Assembly (NCBI GenBank): GCA_963826525.1
Contig: CAWGXH010000004.1
Coordinates: forward strand, 768,001-832,000
Origin: an uncultured Methanomicrobiaceae archaeon
GTDB taxonomy: Archaea; Halobacteriota; Methanomicrobia; Methanomicrobiales; Methanoculleaceae
Direction of reading: 5' to 3'
Length of the DNA: 64,000 nucleotides
Position numbers and translations under genes: made by a program. The notes under the pieces are model-generated. The model worked only from the letters and a program-made list of their open reading frames with translations. It did no database searches and had not been told where the DNA came from. Each line of letters starts with the position of its first letter. The first letter of the stretch is position 1. This document shows, piece by piece, positions 38,698 through 50,383 of the stretch.

Positions 38698-39266
38698 AGA
38701 TCTGTGGGATCACCACCGTCGATGACGCCCGCGCCGCCGCAGCGGCGGGAGCCGACGCCATAGGGGTGGTGATGAGAAGCCCGTCGCCGCGATCCGTGAT
38801 GCCCGACCTGGCACGGGCGATATTTGCGGCGGTTTCGCCGTTTGTGACCACGGTCGCCGTCACGTCGACCGACCGGGAGGAAGACCTTGCGGCGATCCTC
38901 GACTGCCGGCCGGATGCGGTGCAGGTAGGGGGCGACCTCGACCTACCCCGGGGTGCGGCGGTGCGTCTCCTCCGGGTGCTCAGGCCCGGCGACGCCCTCC
39001 GGGACGACTGCGATGCGGTGGTCGTCGATGGCAGTCATGGCACCGGACAGGCATTCGACCGTGCGTATGCCGAAAAGTGCGTGGCCTCCTCGCCGGTGCC
39101 GGTCATCCTCGCGGGCGGACTGACCTGTGGGAATGTGGGGGAGGCGATACGGGCGGTGCGGCCGTATGCCGTCGACGTCTCTTCGGGCGTCGAGACGGCG
39201 CCGGGGCGAAAGGACGATCGGCTCATGAGAGCGTTTGTGAAGATATGCAGGACGACATACCTATGA
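38694..39266 (+). CDS. trpF: Phosphoribosylanthranilate isomerase
   Basis: KICGIT, SPR.V, LAGGL...[14 protein letters not shown]. Confidence 0.94.
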
Positions 39267-40434
39267 AAGCAGGACGATACGGAGTATATGGCGGGCAGTA
39301 CGTGCCCGAGACGCTGATGAGTGCACTGGTTGAACTTGAGGAGACCTATGGGCGGGTCCGTGCCGACCCGGAGTTCTCGCGACGGCTCGGCTGGTACCTG
39401 CGTGAGTATGCCGGCAGGGAGACGCCGCTTTCCTACTGCACCAACCTCTCCCGCGAACTCGGCTGCCGTGTCTACTTAAAACGCGAGGACCTCCTCCACG
39501 GCGGTGCGCACAAACTGAACAACACCCTCGGCCAGGCGCTCATGGCGAAGTTCATGGGCAAGCGCCGGCTGATCGCCGAGACCGGCGCCGGACAGCACGG
39601 CGTGGCGACGGCTATCGCGGGTGCGGCTCTCGGCCTTCCCGTCGATGTCTACATGGGCGAGGTGGATACACGGCGGCAGGCGCTGAACGTCTTCCGGATG
39701 GAGCTCCTCGGAGCTCGGGTCATTCCGGTTGCCTCTGGAACGCGGACCCTTAAAGACGCCATCAACGCAGCGATGCGCGACTGGGTGGCAAATCTCCGGG
39801 AGACCCACTACCTGCTTGGCTCCTGCGTCGGCCCGCACCCCTTCCCCCGGATCGTCCGGGATTTCCAGTCGGTCATCGGCGAGGAGGCGAGACGGCAGAT
39901 ACTCGAACGGGAAGGACGGCTCCCCGATACCGTCGTCGCCTGCGTCGGCGGGGGTTCGAACGCGATCGGCATCTTCTACCCGTTCGTGAACGACGACGTG
40001 ACGCTTGTGGGTGTAGAGGCGGGCGGCGAGGGGCTCGATACGCCTCGTCACGGGGCGTCGCTCTCTGCCGGTTCGGTCGGGGTCTTCCAGGGGGCGCTCT
40101 CCTACCTCCTCCAGGACGACGACGGTCAGGCGCTCGAGACACACTCCATCGCCGCAGGTCTCGACCACCCCTCCGTCGGTCCCGAGCACGCTATGCTGAA
40201 AGATCCGGGCGGGTCCGCTACGAGGCGGTCACCGACCGGGAGGCACTCGAGGCCTTCCGCTACCTCTCCCGCACCGAGGGGATCATCCCGGCACTCGAAT
40301 CCGCCCATGCGGTTGCCTACGCTCTCCGGGCTGCAGGCGACCTCGACCGGGACGGCATCCTCGTCGTCAACCTCTCGGGACGGGGCGACAAAGACGTCGC
40401 CGACGTCGCGAAGATCCCCGGAGGAGCGGCATGA
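39263..40434 (+). CDS. trpB: Tryptophan synthase beta chain TrpB1 (indel ~40205)
   Basis: [40 protein letters not shown]; after the frameshift [21 protein letters not shown]. Confidence 0.95.
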
Positions 40435-41267
40435 GCCGAATCGCCGAGCTTTTTGCCCGGAAGAATCCGGTCTTCATCGGCTTTACCGTCGCCGGAGACC
40501 CGGATATCAAAACGTCACTCCGGATTGCGGAAACGATGATCGATGCGGGTGTCGATCTCCTCGAGATTGCCGTTCCCTACTCCGACCCCGTGGCGGACGG
40601 CCCCGTGATAGAGCGGGCGCATGTCCGCGCTCTCCACGCCGGTACCACGCCGGATGATGTCTTCGCCCTTGTCCGGCAGGTCAGGGAGTACGCACCGGCA
40701 CTGCCGATCGTCCTCTTCACCTACTACAACATCATTTACCGTCGGAGCCCCGAGCGGTTCTTTGCGGAGGCTGCCGCCGCCGGTGCGGACGGCGTCCTCA
40801 TCGTCGATCTCCCCGTCGAAGAGTCGGGTGAGGTCGCGCTGCCTGCCGTGCGGCATGGCATCGACCGGATCATGCTCGTCGCCCCGACAACATCGCCGGA
40901 GCGCCGAAGGGCGATCCTCCGGGAGGCAGCAGGTTTCGTCTACCTGATCTCGCTCGAAGGGGTGACCGGCGAGCGCGACCGGCTCTCGCCCGATATCGCC
41001 GGGCTGATCGGTGCGGTGCGGGCGGATACCGATCTCCCGCTTGCGGTGGGGTTCGGGGTTTCAAGCCCCGAGCATGTCCGGACAGTTGCGGCCGCCGGTG
41101 CGGACGGCGTCATCGTGGGGAGCGCGCTCGTCCGGATCATCGAAGAGCATCTCAGTGACGAGGCAGGGATGCACGACACGCTCCGCACCACGATCGGAGC
41201 GATGCGGCGTGCGCTCCTCCCCGGCCCCGGGCCTGATATACCCGGACGAGAAAGAATAGAGGGATGA
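40431..41267 (+). CDS. trpA: Tryptophan synthase alpha chain
   Basis: [39 protein letters not shown]. Confidence 0.96.
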
Positions 41268-42367
41268 CGTGGACTATCGGATTCCTCGTTAACCCGATCG
41301 CCGGCATGGGTGGTGCCGTCGGGCTGAAGGGGACGGACGGGCAGCTCGCCGAAGCCGTCCGGCGGGGGGCGGTCCCGCATGCCTGCGACCGGGCAGTGCA
41401 GACCCTCTCTCTTCTCCGGGACGACGATATCAGTTTTGTCACCTGTGCCGGAGCGATGGGCGAGGACGTCCTCCTGCGTGCGGGCATCTCTGGGTATACT
41501 GTCCTCTACCGGCCGTGCAACTCCACCACTGCTGCCGATACGAAGGCTGCGTGCCGGGCATTCCTCGACGCCGGGGTCGACCTGATTCTCTTCTGCGGCG
41601 GGGACGGAACGGCTCGGGACGTCTACGACGCCGCCCGGCAGGAGGTGCCGATCCTGGGGATTCCTGCCGGAGTGAAGATGTACTCGGCCGTCTTCGCCGT
41701 CAATCCTGTGGCGGCAGCCGGTCTCGTCCGGCAGGCGGGTCGGGTCGGGTGTCGGGACTCCGAGGTCATGGACATAGACGAGGAGGTCTACCGTTCCGGC
41801 CGCCTCACTGCCCGGCTCTATGGGTATGCACGTGTTCCGTATATCCCGGAGCGGACGCAGGGTGGGAAACAGGTCTTCGAACAGCAGGACGAAGAGCGGG
41901 CGAAAGACGAGATCGCCGCATTCATCACCGAGATCATGATCCCCGGGACGCTTTACATCATCGGCGCCGGGAGCACGACGGCGCGGATTATGGAGCGAAT
42001 GGGGCTTTCTCCGACGCTCCTCGGTGTCGACGTCGTCCGGGACGGGAAGGTCGTCGCCCGCGATGCCGACGAACGGACGCTTCTTGCCCTCTTCGATGAA
42101 CGCCCGCGGGCGAAGATCATTATCAGCCCCATCGGTGCGCAGGGCTTCGTCCTCGGGAGGGGGAACCAGCAGATAAGCCCTGCAGTGCTCCGGAAGGCCG
42201 GATTACAGAATCTCATCGTGGTTGCCACGCCCGCCAAGCTCGCCGCCACGCCCCTCCTGTACGTCGACTCCGGGGATGCGGTGCTGGACCGGCGGATCGG
42301 CGACTCCCTGCCGGTCATCTCCGGGTACCGGATTGCGCAGCGGAAACGGGTCGTCAACACCGGGTGA
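41264..42367 (+). CDS. ATP-NAD kinase family protein (AcoX-like)
   Basis: NPIAGMGGAVGLKGTDG, GGDGTARD, GIPAGVKMYSAVF, GRGNQQIS. Confidence 0.85.
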   Translation: MTWTIGFLVNPIAGMGGAVGLKGTDGQLAEAVRRGAVPHACDRAVQTLSLLRDDDISFVTCAGAMGEDVLLRAGISGYTVLYRPCNSTTAADTKAACRAFLDAGVDLILFCGGDGTARDVYDAARQEVPILGIPAGVKMYSAVFAVNPVAAAGLVRQAGRVGCRDSEVMDIDEEVYRSGRLTARLYGYARVPYIPERTQGGKQVFEQQDEERAKDEIAAFITEIMIPGTLYIIGAGSTTARIMERMGLSPTLLGVDVVRDGKVVARDADERTLLALFDERPRAKIIISPIGAQGFVLGRGNQQISPAVLRKAGLQNLIVVATPAKLAATPLLYVDSGDAVLDRRIGDSLPVISGYRIAQRKRVVNTG

Positions 42368-43982
42368 CGGGGGCTCGCTCTTCTTCTGCACGGAATACTG
42401 CTCGGCGAGCTTGCGAAGATCCCGCACTTTCGCGTTGGCCGCCTCGATGATGGAGAGGACTTCGAGGTAGCGGCTGTCCGCAAGATCGCCTTCTCCGCGG
42501 AGACTCGTGAGCTGCTCGCGGTACTGCTCGTTGATGGCGCGCTGCAGGTCGATATCCCGGGCGCGGAGTTCCGTGACCGTTGTATCGAGGATCTCGGGGA
42601 AGAAGAGCCCGAGCCCGACAATATTTTCTTCGAGGATCCGGTAAACGCTCTCCGTCCGCGCCGCCAGGGCAGCAGGGGTAGTCTTTCCGTTCCGGGACGC
42701 TCGGTGGAAGAACTCGCCGAGCTCCACCCCGAGGTCGCCGAGCCGCTCGATCTCGTTCGACATCCGGACCAGGAAGACCACCTCCTGAGCCTCCCGGTCG
42801 GAGAGCGATCGCTTGGAGATCGTCCGGAGCGCCTGCTCGATCCGGCCATCCAGATAGTCGTTCAGGCTATCGAGTCTCTCGACCATCTGGTAGTCTGCCT
42901 CTTTTCCCGTGGCGAGGTAGGTCATCGCCGCCCGGAAGAGGTCGAGCGTGACCTCGTGGGCATGTTTGAGCTCCTTTCTTATCAGGTCGAACCCGTGGTG
43001 CGTATCGGCGGGGACGCCGCCCTCAAGGTAGCGTGTCCGCATCAGGATCTCAGGCTCGCTGCCGGGCACCGCCCATTCCACAACCCGTTTGAACTGCCCG
43101 ATGATGATGAGGAAGACCGCCGCCGCTATCAGGTTGAAGATGAGGTGGGCGTTTGCCACCATCTGCGCCTCGGTCCCGCCGATCATCTCCACAAGGCCGG
43201 TGAACGGCACGAGGAACGGCAGGATCAGGAGCACGCCCCCGAGGTTGAAGATGAAGTGGGCTGCCGCCGCCCGCCGGGAGTAGAGGTTCATCCGGGCGGA
43301 GGCGATGAGCGTCGTCGTGGTCGACCCGATGTTTGCGCCGAGCAGGATCGGGATCGCCTGCGGGAGGGTGAGCAGCCCCTGCTGGGCGAGGACGACGACG
43401 ATGCCGGTCGTGACGGAGCTCGACTGCACCAGAGTGGTGAAGAGAAACCCTATCAGGATAGCGAGCGGGAGCGCCGAGAACTCGGTGATAAGTCCGATGA
43501 TCTCGGGATCGCTCTGGAACGGCGCGAGCGCCGTCGATATGAGGTTTAAGGCTGAAGAAGACGAGGCCGAAGTAGAAGAGGGGCTTACCCAGGAACTTAT
43601 ACCGGCCGCCGAAGATCCCGATGAGAAAGCCGACCGGGATCAGCACCTGCCCGAAGGCCGTCATCTTGAAGGCGACGAGCTGGGCGGTGACGGTCGTCCC
43701 GATGTTCGAGCCGATGATGATTCCGAGGCTCTGGAGAAACGAGAGCGTCCCGGCGTTGACGAGCCCGATGGTGATGATCGTCGTCGCCGCGCTCGACTGG
43801 ACGAGGGCGGTGACGCCGGCGCCGAGGAGCGCACCGAGAACCGGCCGCTTCGTCACTCTGCCGAGGATCCTGTTGAAACTTCCCTTCGCGACTGCCAGGA
43901 TCTCACGGGAGAAGTTCTCTATCCCGTAGAAGAAGAGGATCAGGCCGGGAATGATGGCGAATACGAGCTCCCACGGAACCAT
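42203..43982 (-). CDS. Na+/Pi cotransporter family protein with PhoU-like C-terminus (indel ~43550; 3' end overlaps convergent gene)
   Basis: Two QSS repeats (VQSSAATT; QSSSVTT), GSNIGTT / GANIGST, EIERLGD. Confidence 0.88.
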
Positions 43983-44051: not shown

Positions 44052-44540
44052 CTATTCTATCCGCTTCGCAATCGTCTCGATCGCCTCCAGTAGCGTTCGC
44101 TTCCTCGGCTTGATGAGTGCGACCGGGCAGTCGACGATCTTCTCGACGATGGGCGCGAGGATAGGAGCGCAGATGATCCCGAGCGCTCCCTCTTTGTCCG
44201 CCCGGACGGCGGCGATGATGCACTCGTCGAGCGACTCCGCCGAGTAGCCGCGGATCCGGTAGGTCGCATTGCCGACCGGGATCTCCCGGTTGTCGAGTTC
44301 ATCGAGGAGGAACCGGGCGGCGATCACCGCGATGAAACTCTGCTCGCGGGGTTCGAGGACACCGACGATCTTCTTCACGGTGGAGAGCCGGGGGTCGGCT
44401 TTGCCGCTCGTCAGCTTGTAGAGGGTCGCCACCGGGATCTCTGCGAGATCCGCAAGCTCCCTGATGCTCATATCCCGGCGCCGGAGTTCCTCCTCGAGAG
44501 CCGTCGAAAAGTCGGCCTCGAAGATCCTTCTCGAGAACAT
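44052..44540 (-). CDS. XRE-family HTH transcriptional regulator with C-terminal sensor-like domain
   Basis: MSIRELADLAEIPVATLYKLTSGKADPRLSTVKKI; divergent from the CoM operon. Confidence 0.85.
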   Translation of the reverse strand: MFSRRIFEADFSTALEEELRRRDMSIRELADLAEIPVATLYKLTSGKADPRLSTVKKIVGVLEPREQSFIAVIAARFLLDELDNREIPVGNATYRIRGYSAESLDECIIAAVRADKEGALGIICAPILAPIVEKIVDCPVALIKPRKRTLLEAIETIAKRIE

Positions 44541-44543
44541 TAC

Positions 44544-44557
44544 TCTACTTTAGTAGA
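44544..44557. promoter_or_regulatory. Palindromic operator candidate TCTACT-N2-AGTAGA
   Basis: Lies 3 bp upstream of the regulator ATG in the divergent promoter region; TATA-like TTAATATA at ~44587-44594. Confidence 0.6.
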
Positions 44558-44645
44558 ATTATTGTGGATAAACATTTCCTTGGTGGTTAATATATGGCGA
44601 CAACAAAGCGAATCATTATGCCTGATCTGCGATCATTGAACAGCT

Positions 44646-45425
44646 ATGAGGACCGGGACGATCCGGGAGATCACCATCCTGCCGGGAAGGAACCGGGCGG
44701 GAGATCCCGAAAACTTCGGATCACTTGTGATCCGGCCGGGCGAGACCATCTCCATCGTCGGCCCGACCGGCTCGGGGAAGAGCGCATTCATAAGCGACAT
44801 CGAGATATTCGCGAGGAACGACACCGTCACCGGGAGGACGGTGCTGGTGAACGGCGAGCTCCCGCCGGAGGAGTTTGTCCGCGACCCGGCAAAGAAACCC
44901 GTCGCCCTGATAACCCAGAACACCAAGTGCCTCGCCGACCTGACGGTTGCCGCATTCCTCGAGATGCACGTCCGTTCCCGGAAGATCGAGGACGAAACGC
45001 TCGTTCGAAAGACGATCGATCTCGCCAACGAGTTTACGGGCGAAAAGATCCATGGTGAGACACGGATGACATCGCTCTCGGGTGGGCAGACCCGTTCGCT
45101 GCTGGTGGCGGATGCCATCACCGTCAGCAACGCTCCTATACTCCTCCTCGACGAGGTGGAGAACGCCGGGATCTTCAAAGACCGGGTGATCGAGATCCTG
45201 CGGGAGTACGGGAAGGCAGTGATCTTCGTCACCCACGACCCCCTCGTCTCGCTCCTCTCCACCCGCCGGATCGTGATGAAGAACGGCGCGGTCGAGAGCG
45301 TGCTCGAACCCGGCGACCGTGAAGCGGAGGCGCTCGCGGCAGCGCTGCGGCTTGACGGGATCCTGGCCCGGATGCGGGAGCGGATCCGGGCAGGCGAGTT
45401 GATCACCGATCCGGCATTTGCATGA
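44646..45425 (+). CDS. ABC-type ATPase without cognate permease
   Basis: GPTGSGKS, LSGGQ, ILLLDE, VTHD. Confidence 0.85.
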   Translation: MRTGTIREITILPGRNRAGDPENFGSLVIRPGETISIVGPTGSGKSAFISDIEIFARNDTVTGRTVLVNGELPPEEFVRDPAKKPVALITQNTKCLADLTVAAFLEMHVRSRKIEDETLVRKTIDLANEFTGEKIHGETRMTSLSGGQTRSLLVADAITVSNAPILLLDEVENAGIFKDRVIEILREYGKAVIFVTHDPLVSLLSTRRIVMKNGAVESVLEPGDREAEALAAALRLDGILARMRERIRAGELITDPAFA

Positions 45426-46130
45426 AGCTCGATCATCATCGCCGGCCCGCCGTCATCCGGGAAGACGGCGGTCGTCAGGCAGATCGTCAGGGGACTGCAG
45501 AGGGAGCATGCGATCGCATACCTCAAGATCGATGTCGTCCGGGCGTTCGAGGACGAGGAGATCCGGGCTGAGTTCTCGCTCCCCACCCGGAAGGTCTACT
45601 CCGGTGACCTCTGCCCCGATCACGCGGGCGTGACGGTGATGCGGGATGCAATCGCCTGGGCGGAGAGCGAGGGCGCAGACCTTTTGATCGTCGAGAGCGC
45701 CGGCCTCTGCCTCCGCTGCTCGCCCTACACCACCCAGGCGCTTGGGGTCGTGGTCATATCCGCTGTTTCGGGGACGAACACCCCTTTAAAGATGGCGGCC
45801 ATGCTGGCGCTCGCCGATTGTGCGGTCGTCACCCGGATCGATCTCGTCTCTCAGGCTGAGAAAGAGGTCTTCCGCGAAAGAATACGGGAGGTAAACCCCG
45901 CGCTCGATATCGTGGAGACGAACGCCGTCCAGGGCACCGGAATGCGGTATCTCCTCCGGGCGATCGAGGAGTTTCCGGAGATCGACGACCCGGATGCGAT
46001 CGTCCTCCGGGGTGTTCCGCCGCTCGGTGTCTGCACCATCTGCATCGGCAGGACCGAGATCGGGTGGCAGCATCACTTCGGCGTCGTCAGGAAGCTCGAG
46101 GGCGCCGACTATCTCTATCGGGGGGAGTAG
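45422..46130 (+). CDS. G3E-family (HypB/UreG-like) GTPase (indel ~45430)
   Basis: AGPPSSGKT, SGDLCPDH, ESAGLCLRCSPY, TRID, C-terminal CTIC. Confidence 0.82.
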
Positions 46131-46133
46131 CGG

Positions 46134-46754
46134 ATGGCGTGGACACCCCCGGGGAAAGACTGCGGCGCCTGCGGCGCCCCGACCTGCGAAGCGTTCCTCG
46201 CCCTGGTCAGGACCGGGGAGCGGGAGCGTGCGGACTGCATCTTCTATGAGGAAGCACCGGTCAGGCCTGGGTATGCCCCGGAAGCGCGGCATGCGGAGAG
46301 AGATATTCTTGGGGGAGGCTACGACTTCATCCTCGAACCGCTCCCCGGCGAAGTCTCCGCGAGGAAGATCGTCCTCCCGTTCCGCCCCGACCTCGTCGAG
46401 GCCTGGAATATTCATGAGGGCGACATCGTCGTCGGGAGACCCGTGGGCGCCGGCTGTCCGGTCCAGCACGTCCTCCGCGTCATTCACGCAAGCCCCGTAT
46501 CGGGGCTCCTCACCTGCTTCGTCGTCGGGCCGCAGGCATCCCGGGGCGGAGAGTTTAAGGATATAGAGGCCTACCACATGGTCGGCTTTGAGGGAATCGC
46601 CCGCCCGGTTCTCCGGGAACCGGTCTTCGGGATGCGGCAGCGGTTCCTGCCCGGGTACTGCATGATGAATCTGGCGCACACGGGAGTCGTCAATATGATC
46701 CTCGGGAAGTCGTACGGGCTCCACGTGCGGGTGGAGGATATCAGGTTTCTATGA
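46134..46754 (+). CDS. Fe-S binding protein (N-terminal FeS domain)
   Basis: PGKDCGACGAPTCEAF...C; GAGCPVQH; C-terminal CMM...HTG. Confidence 0.8.
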   Translation: MAWTPPGKDCGACGAPTCEAFLALVRTGERERADCIFYEEAPVRPGYAPEARHAERDILGGGYDFILEPLPGEVSARKIVLPFRPDLVEAWNIHEGDIVVGRPVGAGCPVQHVLRVIHASPVSGLLTCFVVGPQASRGGEFKDIEAYHMVGFEGIARPVLREPVFGMRQRFLPGYCMMNLAHTGVVNMILGKSYGLHVRVEDIRFL

Positions 46755-47992
46755 AGACGGTTCAGGAGATTCAAGAGAAGATATGGAAGGGCGAGGCGGT
46801 CGTGTACACCGCTGCCGAGTTCAAGGGGCTCGTCCGCGAAGGGCAGACGCTCTCGGCGGCCGACGTCGACGTGGTTACCACCGGGACCTGCGGGGTGGTA
46901 TCGGGCACTGCTGCCATCCTCTCGGTGCCGGTCGCTCCCCCGGGGAGCTTTGAGCGGGCGGAGAAGGTCTGGCTCAACGGTGTGCCGTGCTTCCCCGGCC
47001 CCTGCCCGAACGAACGGCTCGGCCTCGTCGACCTCATCGTTTCGGGCACCGCCCATGCCGGGATGGACTACGGGGGGGGCCACCTCCTCCGCGATATCAT
47101 CGCCGGAAACCCGGTCGAGGTCGTCGTCGAGGCGAGAGACCAGACCTTTGAGGCAACGGTCACGCTCGGCGATCTCCCCTTCGCCCGGATGTTTACGACC
47201 AGGAGCGCCTTTAAAAACTATACGGCGTTCGTGAACCGCCGGTCGACGACCGTCGCCACCATCTTCTCGGTGCGGGGGCTCGCCGGGCCGTGCCGCGAGG
47301 TCTCGGTGAGCGGCTGCGGTGAGATAAATCCCCTGCAGAACGACCCTGCCCGGCTCTCCATTCTGACGGGCTCGCCGATCCTCCTGAACGGGGCGGCCGG
47401 GATAGTCGTCGGAGAGGGGACGCGGAGCAGTCCCGAGAGGCCGAACCTCTCCGTCAGCGCCGACATCGCGGGGATGCAGCCGCAGTACCTCGGCGGTTTT
47501 CGGACGTCGGCATCGCCGGAGTGCTTCATCAGCATCGCCGCTCCCATCCCGGTCCTCGACGACCGGCAGATTGCAATGCTCTCCGTCCTCGACGAGGAGA
47601 TATCCCTCCCGATCGCCGATATCAACGACCGGGCGGTTCTCGGAGAGGGAACCTACGGGGAGGTCTGGCAGAAGACAGATATGTGCGTGCAGTACTACCC
47701 CGACTGGTGCGAGGACTGCTCCGTCTGCGTTGCCGGCGAGACCTGTCCGACCGGGGCATTCTCGAAAGGGAAGGGTATCGACCGGAGCCGCTGCCTCGAC
47801 TGCGGCACCTGCCTCTCTGTCTGTCCGGGCAGCGCCTTTGAGGGCGATTACGGCGCTCTCCGGATCCGCGGCCGGAAGATTCCAATCACGCTCCGGCAGT
47901 CCAGCCGCCGGAGGGCGGAGGAGATCTGCAGCGATCTGAAGGAACAGATCCTGGAGGGGCGGTTCCTGCTCACCGGAGGTGAGCGGTCGTGA
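46751..47992 (+). CDS. comF: Methanogenesis marker 16 metalloprotein (DUF39 + ferredoxin), putative coenzyme M synthase
   Basis: VDVVTTGTCG..SGT, GPCPNERLG, SVSGCGEINPLQNDP, two C-terminal CxxCxxC..CP motifs; directly upstream of cysteate synthase. Confidence 0.82.
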   Translation: MKTVQEIQEKIWKGEAVVYTAAEFKGLVREGQTLSAADVDVVTTGTCGVVSGTAAILSVPVAPPGSFERAEKVWLNGVPCFPGPCPNERLGLVDLIVSGTAHAGMDYGGGHLLRDIIAGNPVEVVVEARDQTFEATVTLGDLPFARMFTTRSAFKNYTAFVNRRSTTVATIFSVRGLAGPCREVSVSGCGEINPLQNDPARLSILTGSPILLNGAAGIVVGEGTRSSPERPNLSVSADIAGMQPQYLGGFRTSASPECFISIAAPIPVLDDRQIAMLSVLDEEISLPIADINDRAVLGEGTYGEVWQKTDMCVQYYPDWCEDCSVCVAGETCPTGAFSKGKGIDRSRCLDCGTCLSVCPGSAFEGDYGALRIRGRKIPITLRQSSRRRAEEICSDLKEQILEGRFLLTGGERS

Positions 47993-49263
47993 CGGAGAAG
48001 TACCGGCTGCAGTGCCCCGGGTGCTGGGTCTCGTTTGACGACCACTACACTCTCGACTGCCCGATGGGGTGCCGTGCGCTGATCCGGACGTACTACCAGA
48101 AGCGGCAGCTCGACGTCAAAGAGCTCCCCGGGATCTTCCGCTACATCGACTGGCTTCCTATCGAGCACCCGCTCCCGCTCGATGCGGGCCCCGTCTCCTA
48201 CCGGAGCGAAGCGTTTGCGCGGGAGCTCGGCCTTGATCATCTTATTGTGACGTTCTCGGGCTACTGGCCGGAACGGGGGGGAAGATCCTGACCTGTTCGT
48301 TCAAGGAGCTTGAGGCCATACCGACCATCATCCGCCTGCGGGAGAAGGGTGCGGGCATCCTGCAGATCTCCTCGGCAGGCAACACGGGACGGGCGTTCTG
48401 CCAGATGTCGGCATTGACCGGGGTGCCGGTCGTGGTCGTCGTTCCTGCTTCATGCCGTGATCGCCTCTGGACGACCGAAGAGGCAGAGAATGTCTGCATG
48501 ATCACGATCGAGGGCGATTACACCGACGCTATCGCCCTCGGAAGGGAGGTATGCACCCTCCCCGGCCTCGTCCCCGAAGGCGGCGCGAGGAACGTCGCCC
48601 GCCGCGACGGGATGGGGACGACGATGCTCGACGGCACGCTGGCGGCCGGCAGGCTGCCTGAATATTACTTCCAGGCCGTCGGGAGCGGAACCGGCGGGAT
48701 CGCCGCATGGGAGGCTGCCGAACGGCTGATCGGCGACGGGCGGTTCGGCACGCACCGGCCGGAGCTGCACCTCTCCCAGAACGTCCCCTTCATCCCGATG
48801 GTGCGGGCGTGGGAGGCCGGGCGCGATCGGATAACCCCTGCGGACATGCCCGATGCAGAGCGGGCGATCGCATCGGTCTCTGCCGATGTGCTCACGAACC
48901 GCGATCCGCCCTACGCCGTGAAGGGCGGGGTGTACGACGCCCTCACCGCGACTTCCGGAAGGATGTATGCGGTCACCAACGACGAGGCGAGGGCTGCCGG
49001 GGCGCTCTTCACCGCCCTTGAGGGGATTGACCTCGACCCGGCGGCCGCCGTCGCCGTCGGCTCGCTCGTCCGGGCGGTCGACGAGGGCACTATCGACCCC
49101 GCGAAAGTCGTCCTTCTCAATATCACCGGCGGCGGTTACGACCGCGTCCGGGAAGATTTCACGCAGCACCGGATCGAACCGTTCCTCCGCCTCTCCGCCG
49201 GAGCCGGGATTGAGGAGGAGGTGCGGGGCGAGGCTTGAAGGGTGGGTGGCTTCCCATGCATGA
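47989..49263 (+). CDS. Cysteate synthase (threonine synthase-like PLP enzyme; indels ~48280, ~49232)
   Basis: N-terminal CxxC..C..C, FSGYWPE.G, TCSFKELEA, SAGNT.RAF, NVARRDGMGT, YFQAVGSGTG; adjacent to comDE. Confidence 0.88.
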
Positions 49264-50383
49264 GACCTGCGTCCTCGACCGGCTCTCCGGTCAGGGGGTC
49301 GAGACCGTGGTATCCCTCCCCTGCGACAGGACGCAGGATCTCTGCTTCCTCTTTCCGGAACGGTTCCACACGGTCGATCTCACCCGGGAGGAGGACGGTG
49401 TCGGTATCTGCGCCGGGCTCGTCCTCGCCGGAGGACGGCCGGTGCTCCATATGCAGAGTTCGGGTCTCGGGAACTCCCTGAATGCGATCATGTCCCTGAC
49501 GGTAACCTTCGGTCTGCCGCTTCCGATCCTCGCGAGCTGGCGGGGCGTCTACAAAGAGGCGATCCCCGCCCAGATCCCGTTTAACAGGGCGGTTCCGGGA
49601 GTGCTCGATGCGCTCGGCATCCCCTATACGATCATCCGCGATAGCAGAGAGGATGACCTGATCGACGCCGTCATCGAGAACGCTTACGGGGAGATGCGCC
49701 CGCACGTGGCTCTCATCTCGCCCGCTTTCTGGGAGGGGGCGGAGGATGCCTGCCCGGCCGCGAAGCGACCGCTCCCGCCCCGGGGCCGAGAGTCTCTGGT
49801 GGAGTACCGCCGGACTATCAGGGAGCCTGTCATGACCCGGTACGACGCGATCCGGGTGATCGCCGCTCTCCTCGGGGATGAAGCGGTGGTCTCCAACATC
49901 GGTGTCCCGTCAAAGGAGCTCTATGCCGCCCGCGACCGGCCCGAGAACTTCTACATGCTCGGGAGCTACACCCAGGCGACGCCGATCGGCCTCGGCCTCG
50001 CGCTGAAAACCGATCGCGACGTGGTGGTGCTCGACGGTGACGGCAGCCTGCTTGGGACGGCCGTCCTCCCGGTGGTGGCGGCGGAGTCTCCCGGGAATCT
50101 CACTATCGTCTGTCTGGACAACGGTGCCTTCGGCAGCACCGGCAACCAGCCGACGAACGCCTACGGCCAGGTGGACATGGAGTTTCTCGCGATCGCTGCC
50201 GGTATCAGGAATACCGCGAAAGTGCATACGCCGGATGAGCTCCGTGATGCGTGGGAGATGCGGGGGAAGGGCCCGGCCTTCCTGCACGTGATCGTACAAC
50301 CGGGCAACGCACCGGTGCCGAACATCCCGTATGCTCCCGAAGATATCCGGGACCGGTTTATGCAGGCTCTCCGGAGCCCCTGA
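49256..50383 (+). CDS. comDE: Sulfopyruvate decarboxylase, fused alpha/beta (ComDE)
   Basis: SLPCD, TREEDGVGICAG, MQSSGLGNS; SNIGVPSKEL, NFYMLGS, TPP motif DGDGS...DNG. Confidence 0.92.
   Translation: MHETCVLDRLSGQGVETVVSLPCDRTQDLCFLFPERFHTVDLTREEDGVGICAGLVLAGGRPVLHMQSSGLGNSLNAIMSLTVTFGLPLPILASWRGVYKEAIPAQIPFNRAVPGVLDALGIPYTIIRDSREDDLIDAVIENAYGEMRPHVALISPAFWEGAEDACPAAKRPLPPRGRESLVEYRRTIREPVMTRYDAIRVIAALLGDEAVVSNIGVPSKELYAARDRPENFYMLGSYTQATPIGLGLALKTDRDVVVLDGDGSLLGTAVLPVVAAESPGNLTIVCLDNGAFGSTGNQPTNAYGQVDMEFLAIAAGIRNTAKVHTPDELRDAWEMRGKGPAFLHVIVQPGNAPVPNIPYAPEDIRDRFMQALRSP

Follow-up and report, generated by a model that had tools for sequence, protein, structure and literature searches.

A three-gene module at the head of a methanogen coenzyme M operon follows sulfite-consuming sulfonate synthases in archaea and bacteria and may supply them with sulfite

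What do the three genes do that open the coenzyme M (CoM) operon of an uncultured Methanomicrobiaceae archaeon? They lie within a stretch of 64,000 nucleotides (nt) of contig CAWGXH010000004.1 (positions 768,001 to 832,000; hereafter, the window) and encode an ATP-binding cassette (ABC)-type ATPase, a G3E-fold NTPase and a COG2000-type Fe-S protein, followed by the genes for methanogenesis marker 16 (MMP16/ComF), cysteate synthase and sulfopyruvate decarboxylase (ComDE). The six genes are labelled A to F in this order, A+B+C are referred to as the trio, and G and L numbers denote the genomes and loci of relatives. The first-pass annotation of this DNA regarded the trio as a nucleotide-driven machine dedicated to ComF. 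Here we find that the trio is a single module, autonomous and horizontally mobile, that tracks cysteate synthase or ComA, not ComF, the link with ComF being secondary. We propose, at a probability of roughly 40%, that it is an NTP-driven metallocentre module with C as its client, which makes or hands over sulfite for sulfonate synthesis.

CoM is indispensable for methane formation, and methanogens live on sulfide and are poisoned by sulfite. Both archaeal CoM routes start with the addition of sulfite to a carbon skeleton, by ComA or by the pyridoxal phosphate-dependent cysteate synthase, which share no homology; these routes and the bacterial ComA-ComB route converge at sulfolactate or sulfopyruvate. 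The in-cell source of the sulfite used for CoM is called unclear in the available text of Yu et al. (2018, PMC6286981), in which reverse alSir is one proposal. MMP16 has been shown to be the main CoM synthase of Methanosarcina acetivorans (Chadwick et al. 2025, PLoS Genet, PMC12068725), and the legend to Fig 2 of the same paper already records the co-localisation of the trio, with the words “their putative role remains unknown”; the available text of that article neither mentions the trio otherwise nor mentions sulfite at any point. The first-pass annotation, which was right in giving the three genes no assigned function, was unaware that their co-localisation had been published. We found no paper giving the trio a role in the literature on COG2000, the sulfite source, cysteate synthase or CoM biosynthesis. 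New here are the bacterial distribution of the trio, its linkage to ComA and its complementarity with adenosine 5′-phosphosulfate (APS) reductase; the co-localisation itself was known.

The operon consists of six packed genes on the plus strand (lengths of proteins in amino acids, aa):

44646 to 45425, plus strand: A, ABC-type ATPase, 259 aa (PF00005, 50.1 bits against a cut-off of 25)
45422 to 46130, open frame 45426 to 46130, plus strand: B, G3E NTPase (PF02492, 52.3 bits against a cut-off of 20.7)
46134 to 46754, plus strand: C, COG2000-type Fe-S protein, 206 aa (PF04060, 38 bits against a cut-off of 23)
46751 to 47992, plus strand: D, methanogenesis marker 16/ComF (TIGR03287, 531.1 bits against a cut-off of 363.95; PF01837, 326 bits)
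47989 to 49238, plus strand, in two frames (47989 to 48291 and 48237 to 49238): E, cysteate synthase (TIGR03844)
49235 to 50383, plus strand: F, fused sulfopyruvate decarboxylase ComDE (TIGR03845, 210 bits against 148; TIGR03846, 246 bits against 221.5)

All six genes of the first-pass annotation are present with the overlapping or near-abutting junctions it gave, E being split between two frames. A and B share an ATGA, as do C and D; B and C are separated by 3 nt, and D overlaps E as E overlaps F. The match of D to TIGR03287 is full length (profile positions 1-390 of 391), and the protein combines a COG1900 domain with a C-terminal ferredoxin-like domain containing Fer4 motifs at residues 310-376. 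Such an arrangement goes well beyond what chance would give: 24 of 41 related genomes retain the order A-B-C, and in the loci of a wider scan A stays beside B.

The 41 genomes represent the order Methanomicrobiales. In 24 of them the trio is complete, its genes adjoining one another in an unchanged order; an MMP16 orthologue was detected in 27 and cysteate synthase in 26, and ComA was found in none of the 41. In 23 of the 24 trio-bearing genomes the gene directly after C is D, the exception being G038, in which the order is A-B-C-E-F and no MMP16 orthologue is found anywhere in a genome that is 99% complete. Cysteate synthase accompanies the trio in 23 of the 24 genomes, the last locus stopping at a contig edge, and 14 of the 17 trio-less genomes also lack it. 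D occurs without the trio in G002 (which retains only a C-terminal remnant of C), G016, G021 and G024, and E does so in G002, G021 and G040. Within the order, the trio tracks D and E equally well (D present/absent in 23/1 genomes with the trio versus 4/13 without it; E, 23/1 versus 3/14).

To look beyond the order, relatives of C were collected with a narrow alignment at one genome per species, and the best 80 loci among the 242 relatives found were examined, so that distant members are under-sampled. In the 79 loci that contain more than C, A always adjoins B, and C lies downstream of them, or upstream in three bacterial loci. The three genes behave as the single unit that the first-pass annotation took them to be: they occur together, with A beside B, and disappear together. 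In 56 of the 59 archaeal loci the gene directly after C is D. Three loci, L052, L054 and L055, carry A-B-C-E without D, followed by F in L052 and L055, whereas the contig of L054 ends after E. In the Methanosarcinales-type loci L051 and L065 the order is A-B-C-D-ComA-ComB...ComDE. L054, which contains an HTH gene, A, B, C and cysteate synthase with 51-68% identity to the window, comes from a record labelled Candidatus Nanohalarchaeota, a label that is probably due to a binning error.

Bacterial records account for 21 of the 80 loci; these contain the whole trio or parts of it, with identities to the window of 49-55% for A, 56-63% for B and 57-63% for C. They derive from Pelotomaculum, Peptococcia, Dethiobacter, several Clostridia, a metagenome-assembled genome (MAG) labelled Desulfotomaculum, Deltaproteobacteria HGW-19, Syntrophaceae, Auribacterota and UBP3. 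A tree of the concatenated A, B and C proteins, rooted with a paralogue, resolves into three clades, archaea, Firmicutes and a “sugar-cluster” group, each with support of at least 0.99, and the module is co-inherited, with A beside B, in methanogens, in Firmicutes and in this third, bacterial group. Within 6 kb of the trio, D, E and F are missing from all 21 bacterial loci. Immediately upstream of A, L071, L076, L084, L093 and L097 carry ComA or ComA-ComB.

The association with ComA was quantified in two bacterial classes. Of the 88 genomes in the class to which the Peptococcia MAG belongs, 11 have C and 23 have ComA. Every one of the 11 also has ComA, compared with 12 of the other 77, and 10 of them carry it on the same contig as C, 1.6-3.2 kb upstream. 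Among the 151 genomes in the class of the Pelotomaculum MAG, ComA is near-universal (133 of 151) and C is found in 25. An AprA match, the marker of APS reductase, was obtained in 102 of these 151 genomes, 96 of them above cut-off. C is present with no AprA match in 23 genomes, and 100 have an AprA match but no C; 2 have both, and 26 have neither, 12 of these being without ComA as well. The two genomes with both are marginal, since G130 has a weak match to C (1e-23) and the AprA match of G172 is below cut-off. The trio and APS reductase are almost mutually exclusive in this class. Searches for AprA were likewise negative in 10 trio-bearing genomes of other bacterial taxa and in 5 trio-bearing Methanomicrobiales, as were those for ATP sulfurylase (PF01747) in 5 Firmicutes and 5 Methanomicrobiales. 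The ComA-bearing Firmicutes G041, G043 and G196 showed no AprA, no ATP sulfurylase, no above-cut-off match to 3′-phosphoadenosine 5′-phosphosulfate (PAPS) reductase and no NIR_SIR protein.

Is ComF, then, the target of the trio? A dedicated nucleotide-driven machine, as put forward in the first-pass annotation, is a reasonable view of A, B and C, but ComF as its target is not what the distribution indicates. That the trio matures or serves ComF/COG1900 enzymes, by metal or Fe-S insertion, reductive activation, or delivery of sulfur or electrons, is to us unlikely. In favour of such a role, the stop codon of C overlaps the start of D, D directly follows C in nearly all relatives (23 of 24 in the order, 56 of 59 archaeal loci), the two are correlated across the 41 genomes, MMP16 is annotated as a metalloprotein, and each of five trio-bearing bacterial genomes tested encodes one COG1900 protein. 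L-ASST (MA1821-MA1822), a COG1900 sulfurtransferase dependent on helper proteins of its own, is also a precedent; MA1715 is discussed as its sulfur-trafficking partner in the available text of Chadwick et al. (2025, PMC12068725). However, the helpers of L-ASST belong to other families than the trio, whose distribution in bacteria does not track COG1900. The trio is retained with E but without D in four archaeal loci (L015 of G038, L052, L054 and L055; F is present in three of them), D is retained without the trio in four relatives (G002, G016, G021 and G024), none of the 21 bacterial loci contains a D homologue within 6 kb, and in G041 the trio and the COG1900 (HcyBio) gene are on different contigs (C8 and C3). 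Furthermore, the gene joined to bacterial trio operons is ComA, not COG1900, and D already has its own two-cluster ferredoxin domain. On profiling, the trio occurs mostly without CoM genes outside the archaea and partly so inside them, an outcome that the first-pass annotation had itself named as refuting such a role. The partner that is constant across lineages is a sulfite-using sulfonate synthase, cysteate synthase or ComA.

We favour a role in sulfite supply because the recurring partner in unrelated lineages is a sulfite-consuming sulfonate synthase (cysteate synthase in Methanomicrobiales, ComA in Methanosarcinales-type archaea and Firmicutes), and because the trio nearly excludes APS reductase where ComA is near-universal. 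In this proposal A, using ATP, and B, using GTP and binding metal, would assemble or recharge a metal or Fe-S centre on C, and C would be the working redox protein, which produces sulfite (or a comparable oxidised sulfur species) or passes it on, with nucleotide hydrolysis paying for the assembly or for an unfavourable redox step. The sulfur could come from sulfide, thiosulfate or sulfate, and the product would be used for the biosynthesis of sulfonates (CoM, sulfolactate) in strict anaerobes without the ATP-sulfurylase/APS-reductase route. The narrower version, in which the trio is an NTP-driven Fe-S/metal system making sulfite de novo from sulfide, thiosulfate or unactivated sulfate, is more doubtful. 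The same position, supply of sulfite to ComA or cysteate synthase, belongs to the known sulfite sources, ATP sulfurylase with APS reductase (Sat-AprAB), PAPS reductase and the siroheme sulfite reductases acting in reverse (alSir/Dsr-LP); the trio has no homology to any of them, and its distribution is complementary to AprA in one class.

Several observations weigh against sulfite supply. All of the evidence is associative, and the chemistry comes from inference only. A, B and C resemble no known sulfite-forming enzyme: AprA, ATP sulfurylase, PAPS reductase and NIR_SIR are absent from the Pfam matches of all three proteins (E ≤ 0.01) and from their NCBIfam matches (all matches for B and C, the best 25 for A); the lack of such matches lowers the probability that the trio is a known sulfite enzyme, not that it supplies sulfite. 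In 56 of 59 archaeal loci C and D are coupled in translation, and all five trio-bearing bacterial genomes tested encode a COG1900 protein elsewhere. In the Pelotomaculum-MAG class, ComA is found within 8 kb of the trio in only 5 of 24 loci, 5 of the 24 lie beside CysE, CysK, MetY or MetA, which are sulfide users, and 14 have none of the panel genes nearby, two of these being on very short contigs; moreover, 108 of the 133 ComA-bearing genomes of this class lack C. A NIR_SIR protein is encoded in 18 of the 25 C-positive genomes, and also in G000. In four bacterial loci (L062, L067, L077 and L100) the genes are arranged as C-SDR-A-B, where SDR is a short-chain dehydrogenase/reductase, within a pseudaminic-acid-like sugar cluster, and in one genome with such a cluster, G045, no ComA was found. 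Finally, related genomes are not independent, which inflates the Fisher values of these associations, and the trio-bearing genomes of each bacterial class may represent one clade, so that the complementarity with AprA may reflect a single loss and gain, and MAG incompleteness weakens every failure to find a gene. The presence of NIR_SIR proteins in those 18 genomes also led us to reject the trio as a simple substitute for siroheme sulfite reductase.

Are the proteins themselves suited to such a task? A belongs to the ABC ATPase family PF00005 by its motifs and score, and its Walker A (GPTGSGK), Q91, LSGGQ, Walker B (LLDE) and THD motifs are invariant in 18 orthologues. It is highly divergent, with best NCBIfam and Protein Data Bank (PDB) matches of about 50-60 bits, and does not qualify as an ABC transporter component, its best NCBIfam match scoring about 52 bits against transporter cut-offs of 220-780. 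The description of A as permease-less holds: neither an ABC permease nor a solute-binding protein gene is encoded within about 5 kb of the trio in the window, and no cognate permease or binding protein was found in the conserved loci. Among known systems, SufC of the SufBC2D complex is likewise an ABC ATPase with all nucleotide-binding motifs, without a membrane partner and encoded together with an Fe-S protein; A differs in that no SufB or SufD homologue is present in its operon, and SufC is not among the best 25 of the 151 NCBIfam families matched by A, no dedicated comparison with SufC having been made.

B is a member of the G3E P-loop family (CobW/HypB/UreG/MeaB, PF02492) both by Pfam score and by fold, as first annotated. 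The best structural matches of its AlphaFold2 (AF2) model (pLDDT 74.9) in Foldseek searches are UreG (4hi0) and HypB (2hf8, 2wsm and 4lps), with E-values of 4e-10 to 2e-8, a probability of 1.00 and TM scores of 0.62-0.68 of the query. B is neither HypB nor UreG proper, scoring 70.5 against the cut-off of 121.2 for TIGR00073 and 26.1 against 204.2 for TIGR00101. Its invariant residues comprise GPPSxGKT, DLCPDH, ESAGLCLRC, the specificity motif T(K/R)xD in place of NKxD, and a C-terminal CTxC...H tail, which is not confidently modelled; the motifs DLCPDH, CLRC and CTIC in B and CGACGAPTC and GCPVQH in C, which were pointed out in the first-pass annotation, are all present in the translations. 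HypB, with HypA, and UreG, with UreE/F/H, are G3E metallochaperones for [NiFe]-hydrogenase and urease, respectively. B shares with them the P-loop, the ExxG Walker B motif and adjacent invariant Cys and His residues, its DLCPDH/ESAGLCLRC region presumably being the counterpart of the Cys-His-Cys site of HypB. In contrast to both, B has the additional invariant tail, its operon lacks genes for HypA, UreE/F/H, hydrogenase and urease, and B itself has an ABC ATPase and an Fe-S protein as constant partners.

C consists of an N-terminal four-Cys PF04060 domain (Cx2Cx4Cx16C) and an all-beta C-terminal domain (residues ~60-206), modelled by AF2 with a pLDDT of 90. Among 28 sequences, C10, C13, C18, C35, R77 and R102 are invariant, and GCPxxH (C108, H112) and CMM..H (C176, H182) are nearly so. 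Judging from these motifs, the N-terminal domain would be of the [4Fe-4S] type and the barrel would carry two invariant Arg residues and a Cys2His2 set. The first ~40 residues, with the four invariant Cys, correspond to the PF04060 domain common to CdhE/AcsC, RnfB and MobB-FeS fusions; RnfB (9eri_B) is 30% identical to residues 1-43, and ACDS gamma and a MobB/FeS protein are weak NCBIfam matches. C differs from all of these by its beta barrel, for which there is no clear solved relative, and by an operon in which corrinoid, Rnf and molybdopterin genes are absent. For the fold of C, Foldseek returned no PDB match at E ≤ 0.001, and the best VIA-align Z score among 48,161 chains was 3.9, the matches being small generic barrels. 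The family is small: 130 representative clusters match among 1.84 billion proteins, and in the ESM Atlas C falls only into its own “(Fe-S)-binding protein” clusters. In a complex prediction for A, B and C, C scored 0.00 as a partner against a mark of 0.32, a result obtained without controls. Taken together, the protein features of the trio fit a redox metalloprotein with its own chaperones.

One alternative to sulfite supply is that C is an oxidoreductase or sensor acting on a sulfonate intermediate (sulfolactate, sulfopyruvate) or product, with A and B as its assembly factors, which we regard as highly improbable. The two invariant Arg residues could bind a sulfonate or carboxylate, the convergence of the CoM routes and the bacterial ComA-ComB route at sulfolactate/sulfopyruvate would provide a common substrate, and in L106-L108 (G127, G154 and G153) the trio stands beside genes for a 474-aa GltB-like FMN protein, CotF, a thiamine pyrophosphate (TPP) enzyme, a GFO/IDH/MocA oxidoreductase, a major facilitator superfamily (MFS) transporter and ComA. 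Yet the Methanomicrobiales route from cysteate needs no added redox step before ComDE, and the sugar-cluster and Cys/Met contexts would be left unexplained. The TPP enzyme of L106-L108 has three domains and is split in some genomes; the block may be a sulfonate pathway.

A second alternative centres on B. Paralogous pairs B′-A′, with 39-46% identity and in reverse order, occur in several relatives, next to a DUF364/DUF4213 “heavy-metal chelation” protein, an SBP_bac_6 protein or MtrA/MtrH paralogues. In L017 (G014:C1:1770000-1781000) the pair lies beside MtrA/MtrH paralogues and a DUF364/DUF4213 protein, and in L016 (G038:C1:2433000-2445000) beside a 426-aa DUF1858+SBP_bac_6 protein; these pairs of G014 and G038 may form a sister system that handles metals or corrinoids. 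The Dethiobacter trio is preceded by genes for two MinD-Fer4 ATPases and a DUF364 protein. The contexts of B′-A′ and the Dethiobacter locus suggest that the ATPase-GTPase pair is a reusable metal-insertion unit with varied clients, the client in the trio being C. Could the whole trio be concerned with metal handling (Ni, Co, Zn, Fe), without sulfur chemistry of its own, A and B being a generic insertion pair and C an adaptor, so that the linkage to sulfonate genes reflects co-regulation or a metal need? The HypB/UreG fold of B with its invariant Cys/His sites, the corrinoid-type and DUF364/DUF4213 or SBP_bac_6 neighbours of the paralogues and the Dethiobacter arrangement all agree with this possibility. 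It is nevertheless very unlikely in our estimation, as it does not predict the complementarity with AprA, and C, which is always co-inherited and has its own conserved candidate metal site, looks like a client, not an adaptor. Such a metal centre is not known to be required by ComA or cysteate synthase.

A third alternative is prompted by the bacterial neighbourhoods. CysE, CysK, MetY and MetA genes flank the trio in L082 and L109, CysE or MetY genes do so in L121 and L125, and SAM (S-adenosylmethionine) riboswitches lead the adjacent Met/Cys genes in L109 and L125. Together with D as the archaeal neighbour and the Cys-rich nature of B and C, these contexts would suit general sulfur trafficking, in which reduced sulfur (sulfide or persulfide) is taken up or activated and passed to enzymes such as CysK, MetY, ComF and L-ASST. 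We consider this improbable: it leaves unexplained both the ComA-A-B-C operons (10 of 11 in one class) and the retention of the trio with cysteate synthase in the absence of D, ComA and cysteate synthase use sulfite, not sulfide, and the domain matches of A, B and C include no rhodanese, cysteine desulfurase or TusA-like domain.

Further features of the bacterial loci deserve mention. SAM riboswitches at L101:9267-9380, L109:11414-11522 and L125:13176-13285 lead neighbouring Met/Cys genes, and no riboswitch was found directly upstream of a bacterial trio in the 21 loci scanned. Cobalamin riboswitches at L066:4069-4233 and L091:4139-4302 (minus strand) are located just upstream of A and face a divergent gene (SLH/DUF4430 in L091). 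The loci with the C-SDR-A-B block (L067, L077, L100 and L062) come from a Deltaproteobacterium and from MAGs of an Auribacterota, a UBP3 and a Syntrophaceae; the SDR is an extended enzyme of 330 aa, and the block is surrounded by PseB/PseC-like genes, PseG, a cytidylyltransferase, GNAT and NeuB, which hints at a modified nonulosonic sugar. We considered whether this SDR might be an SQD1-like UDP-sulfoquinovose synthase and rejected the idea, since only generic GalE/RmlB-type relatives were recovered and no SQD1 was present among 40 PDB matches (E ≤ 1e-10).

Within the Methanomicrobiales, 12 of the 41 genomes (G003, G005, G006, G007, G012, G017, G020, G025, G028, G030, G033 and G035) yielded neither an MMP16 orthologue nor cysteate synthase, ComA or a complete trio. 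Most of them are 98-99% complete, and G007 retains only decayed pieces of A and B; these organisms are candidate CoM auxotrophs or users of another route. In G016 (C1:456083-457312) and G024 (C86:11126-12355) an MMP16 orthologue is encoded, and cysteate synthase, ComA and the trio were not found in the genome.

Two further features precede the operon in the window, the first of which accounts for the start of the annotated span at 44052 as a seventh, divergent gene:

44052 to 44540, minus strand: HTH_3 (Cro/C1-type) regulator, 162 aa, with an uncharacterised C-terminal half (PF01381, 31.8 bits)
44539 to 44562, no strand: imperfect inverted repeat ATTACTCTACT/AGTAGAATTAT, with 11-nt arms, 82% complementary and 2 nt apart, in an A+T-rich intergenic region

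A homologue of the regulator is divergently encoded upstream of A in most archaeal loci, and the inverted repeat may be a candidate operator. In G038, a gene for an SsuA-family aliphatic-sulfonate-binding protein (L015:3104-4042) lies just past the HTH regulator, upstream of the trio; ssuA and ssuC of M. acetivorans are described as a CoM transporter in the available text of Chadwick et al. (2025, PMC12068725).

How reliable is the sequence of the window itself? Two of the six genes are broken. The frame of B has no usable start and is in frame with A, behind the TGA of the latter. In 18 orthologue loci B starts with M-(K/R)-L-x-(I/V)-(I/V)-A-G-P-P-S, its ATG overlapping the stop codon of A; relative to these loci, the window contains one extra base after codon 3 (~45431), the ATG of B at 45422 overlapping the stop of A. 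Read-through or fusion across the in-frame TGA was considered and rejected, given that the orthologues are separate genes with the ATGA overlap and that the window has the one-base insertion. The two pieces of E match TIGR03844 (cut-off 324.9) in different frames, residues 1-93 with 121.7 bits and residues 90-396 with 500.2 bits, and the break falls inside a G7 run at ~48274-48281, exactly where a ~92% identical contig from the soil metagenome of another sample has one more G. Nearby, trpB (39077-40657) seems to be frameshifted, with an Arg/Ser/Pro-rich tail and an overlap with trpA, as does the Na/Pi cotransporter gene (42203-43982, minus strand), which consists of two overlapping open reading frames. 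In all, at least four apparent frameshifts fall within 11 kb of the window. Given the frameshifts in trpB and the cotransporter gene and a genome completeness of 87.6%, compared with 98-99% for most relatives, assembly indel errors, rather than biology, are the likeliest cause of the breaks in B and E, and gene breaks in this genome should not be taken as pseudogenes without the reads. A G8 run inside D (47071-47078) lacks one base in an otherwise identical 151-nt soil-metagenome contig, D being intact in the window; either this low-depth contig or the window is wrong. Two soil-metagenome runs contain 0.09 and 0.05 of the sampled words of the window, with a coverage that leaves out the start of B.

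Even if the sulfite proposal is wrong, the module is not specific to ComF and is common to methanogens and their bacterial neighbours. If the trio makes sulfite de novo, the long-sought origin of the sulfite used for CoM in methanogens, and of that used for sulfolactate in anaerobic Firmicutes, would be found, and the trio would constitute a non-homologous replacement of the ATP-sulfurylase/APS-reductase route. It would then also account for sulfolactate in spore-forming syntrophs, extend the HypB/UreG chaperone family to a novel type of client and present another point at which methanogenesis could be inhibited. A candidate of three genes would make the question of the sulfite source directly testable.

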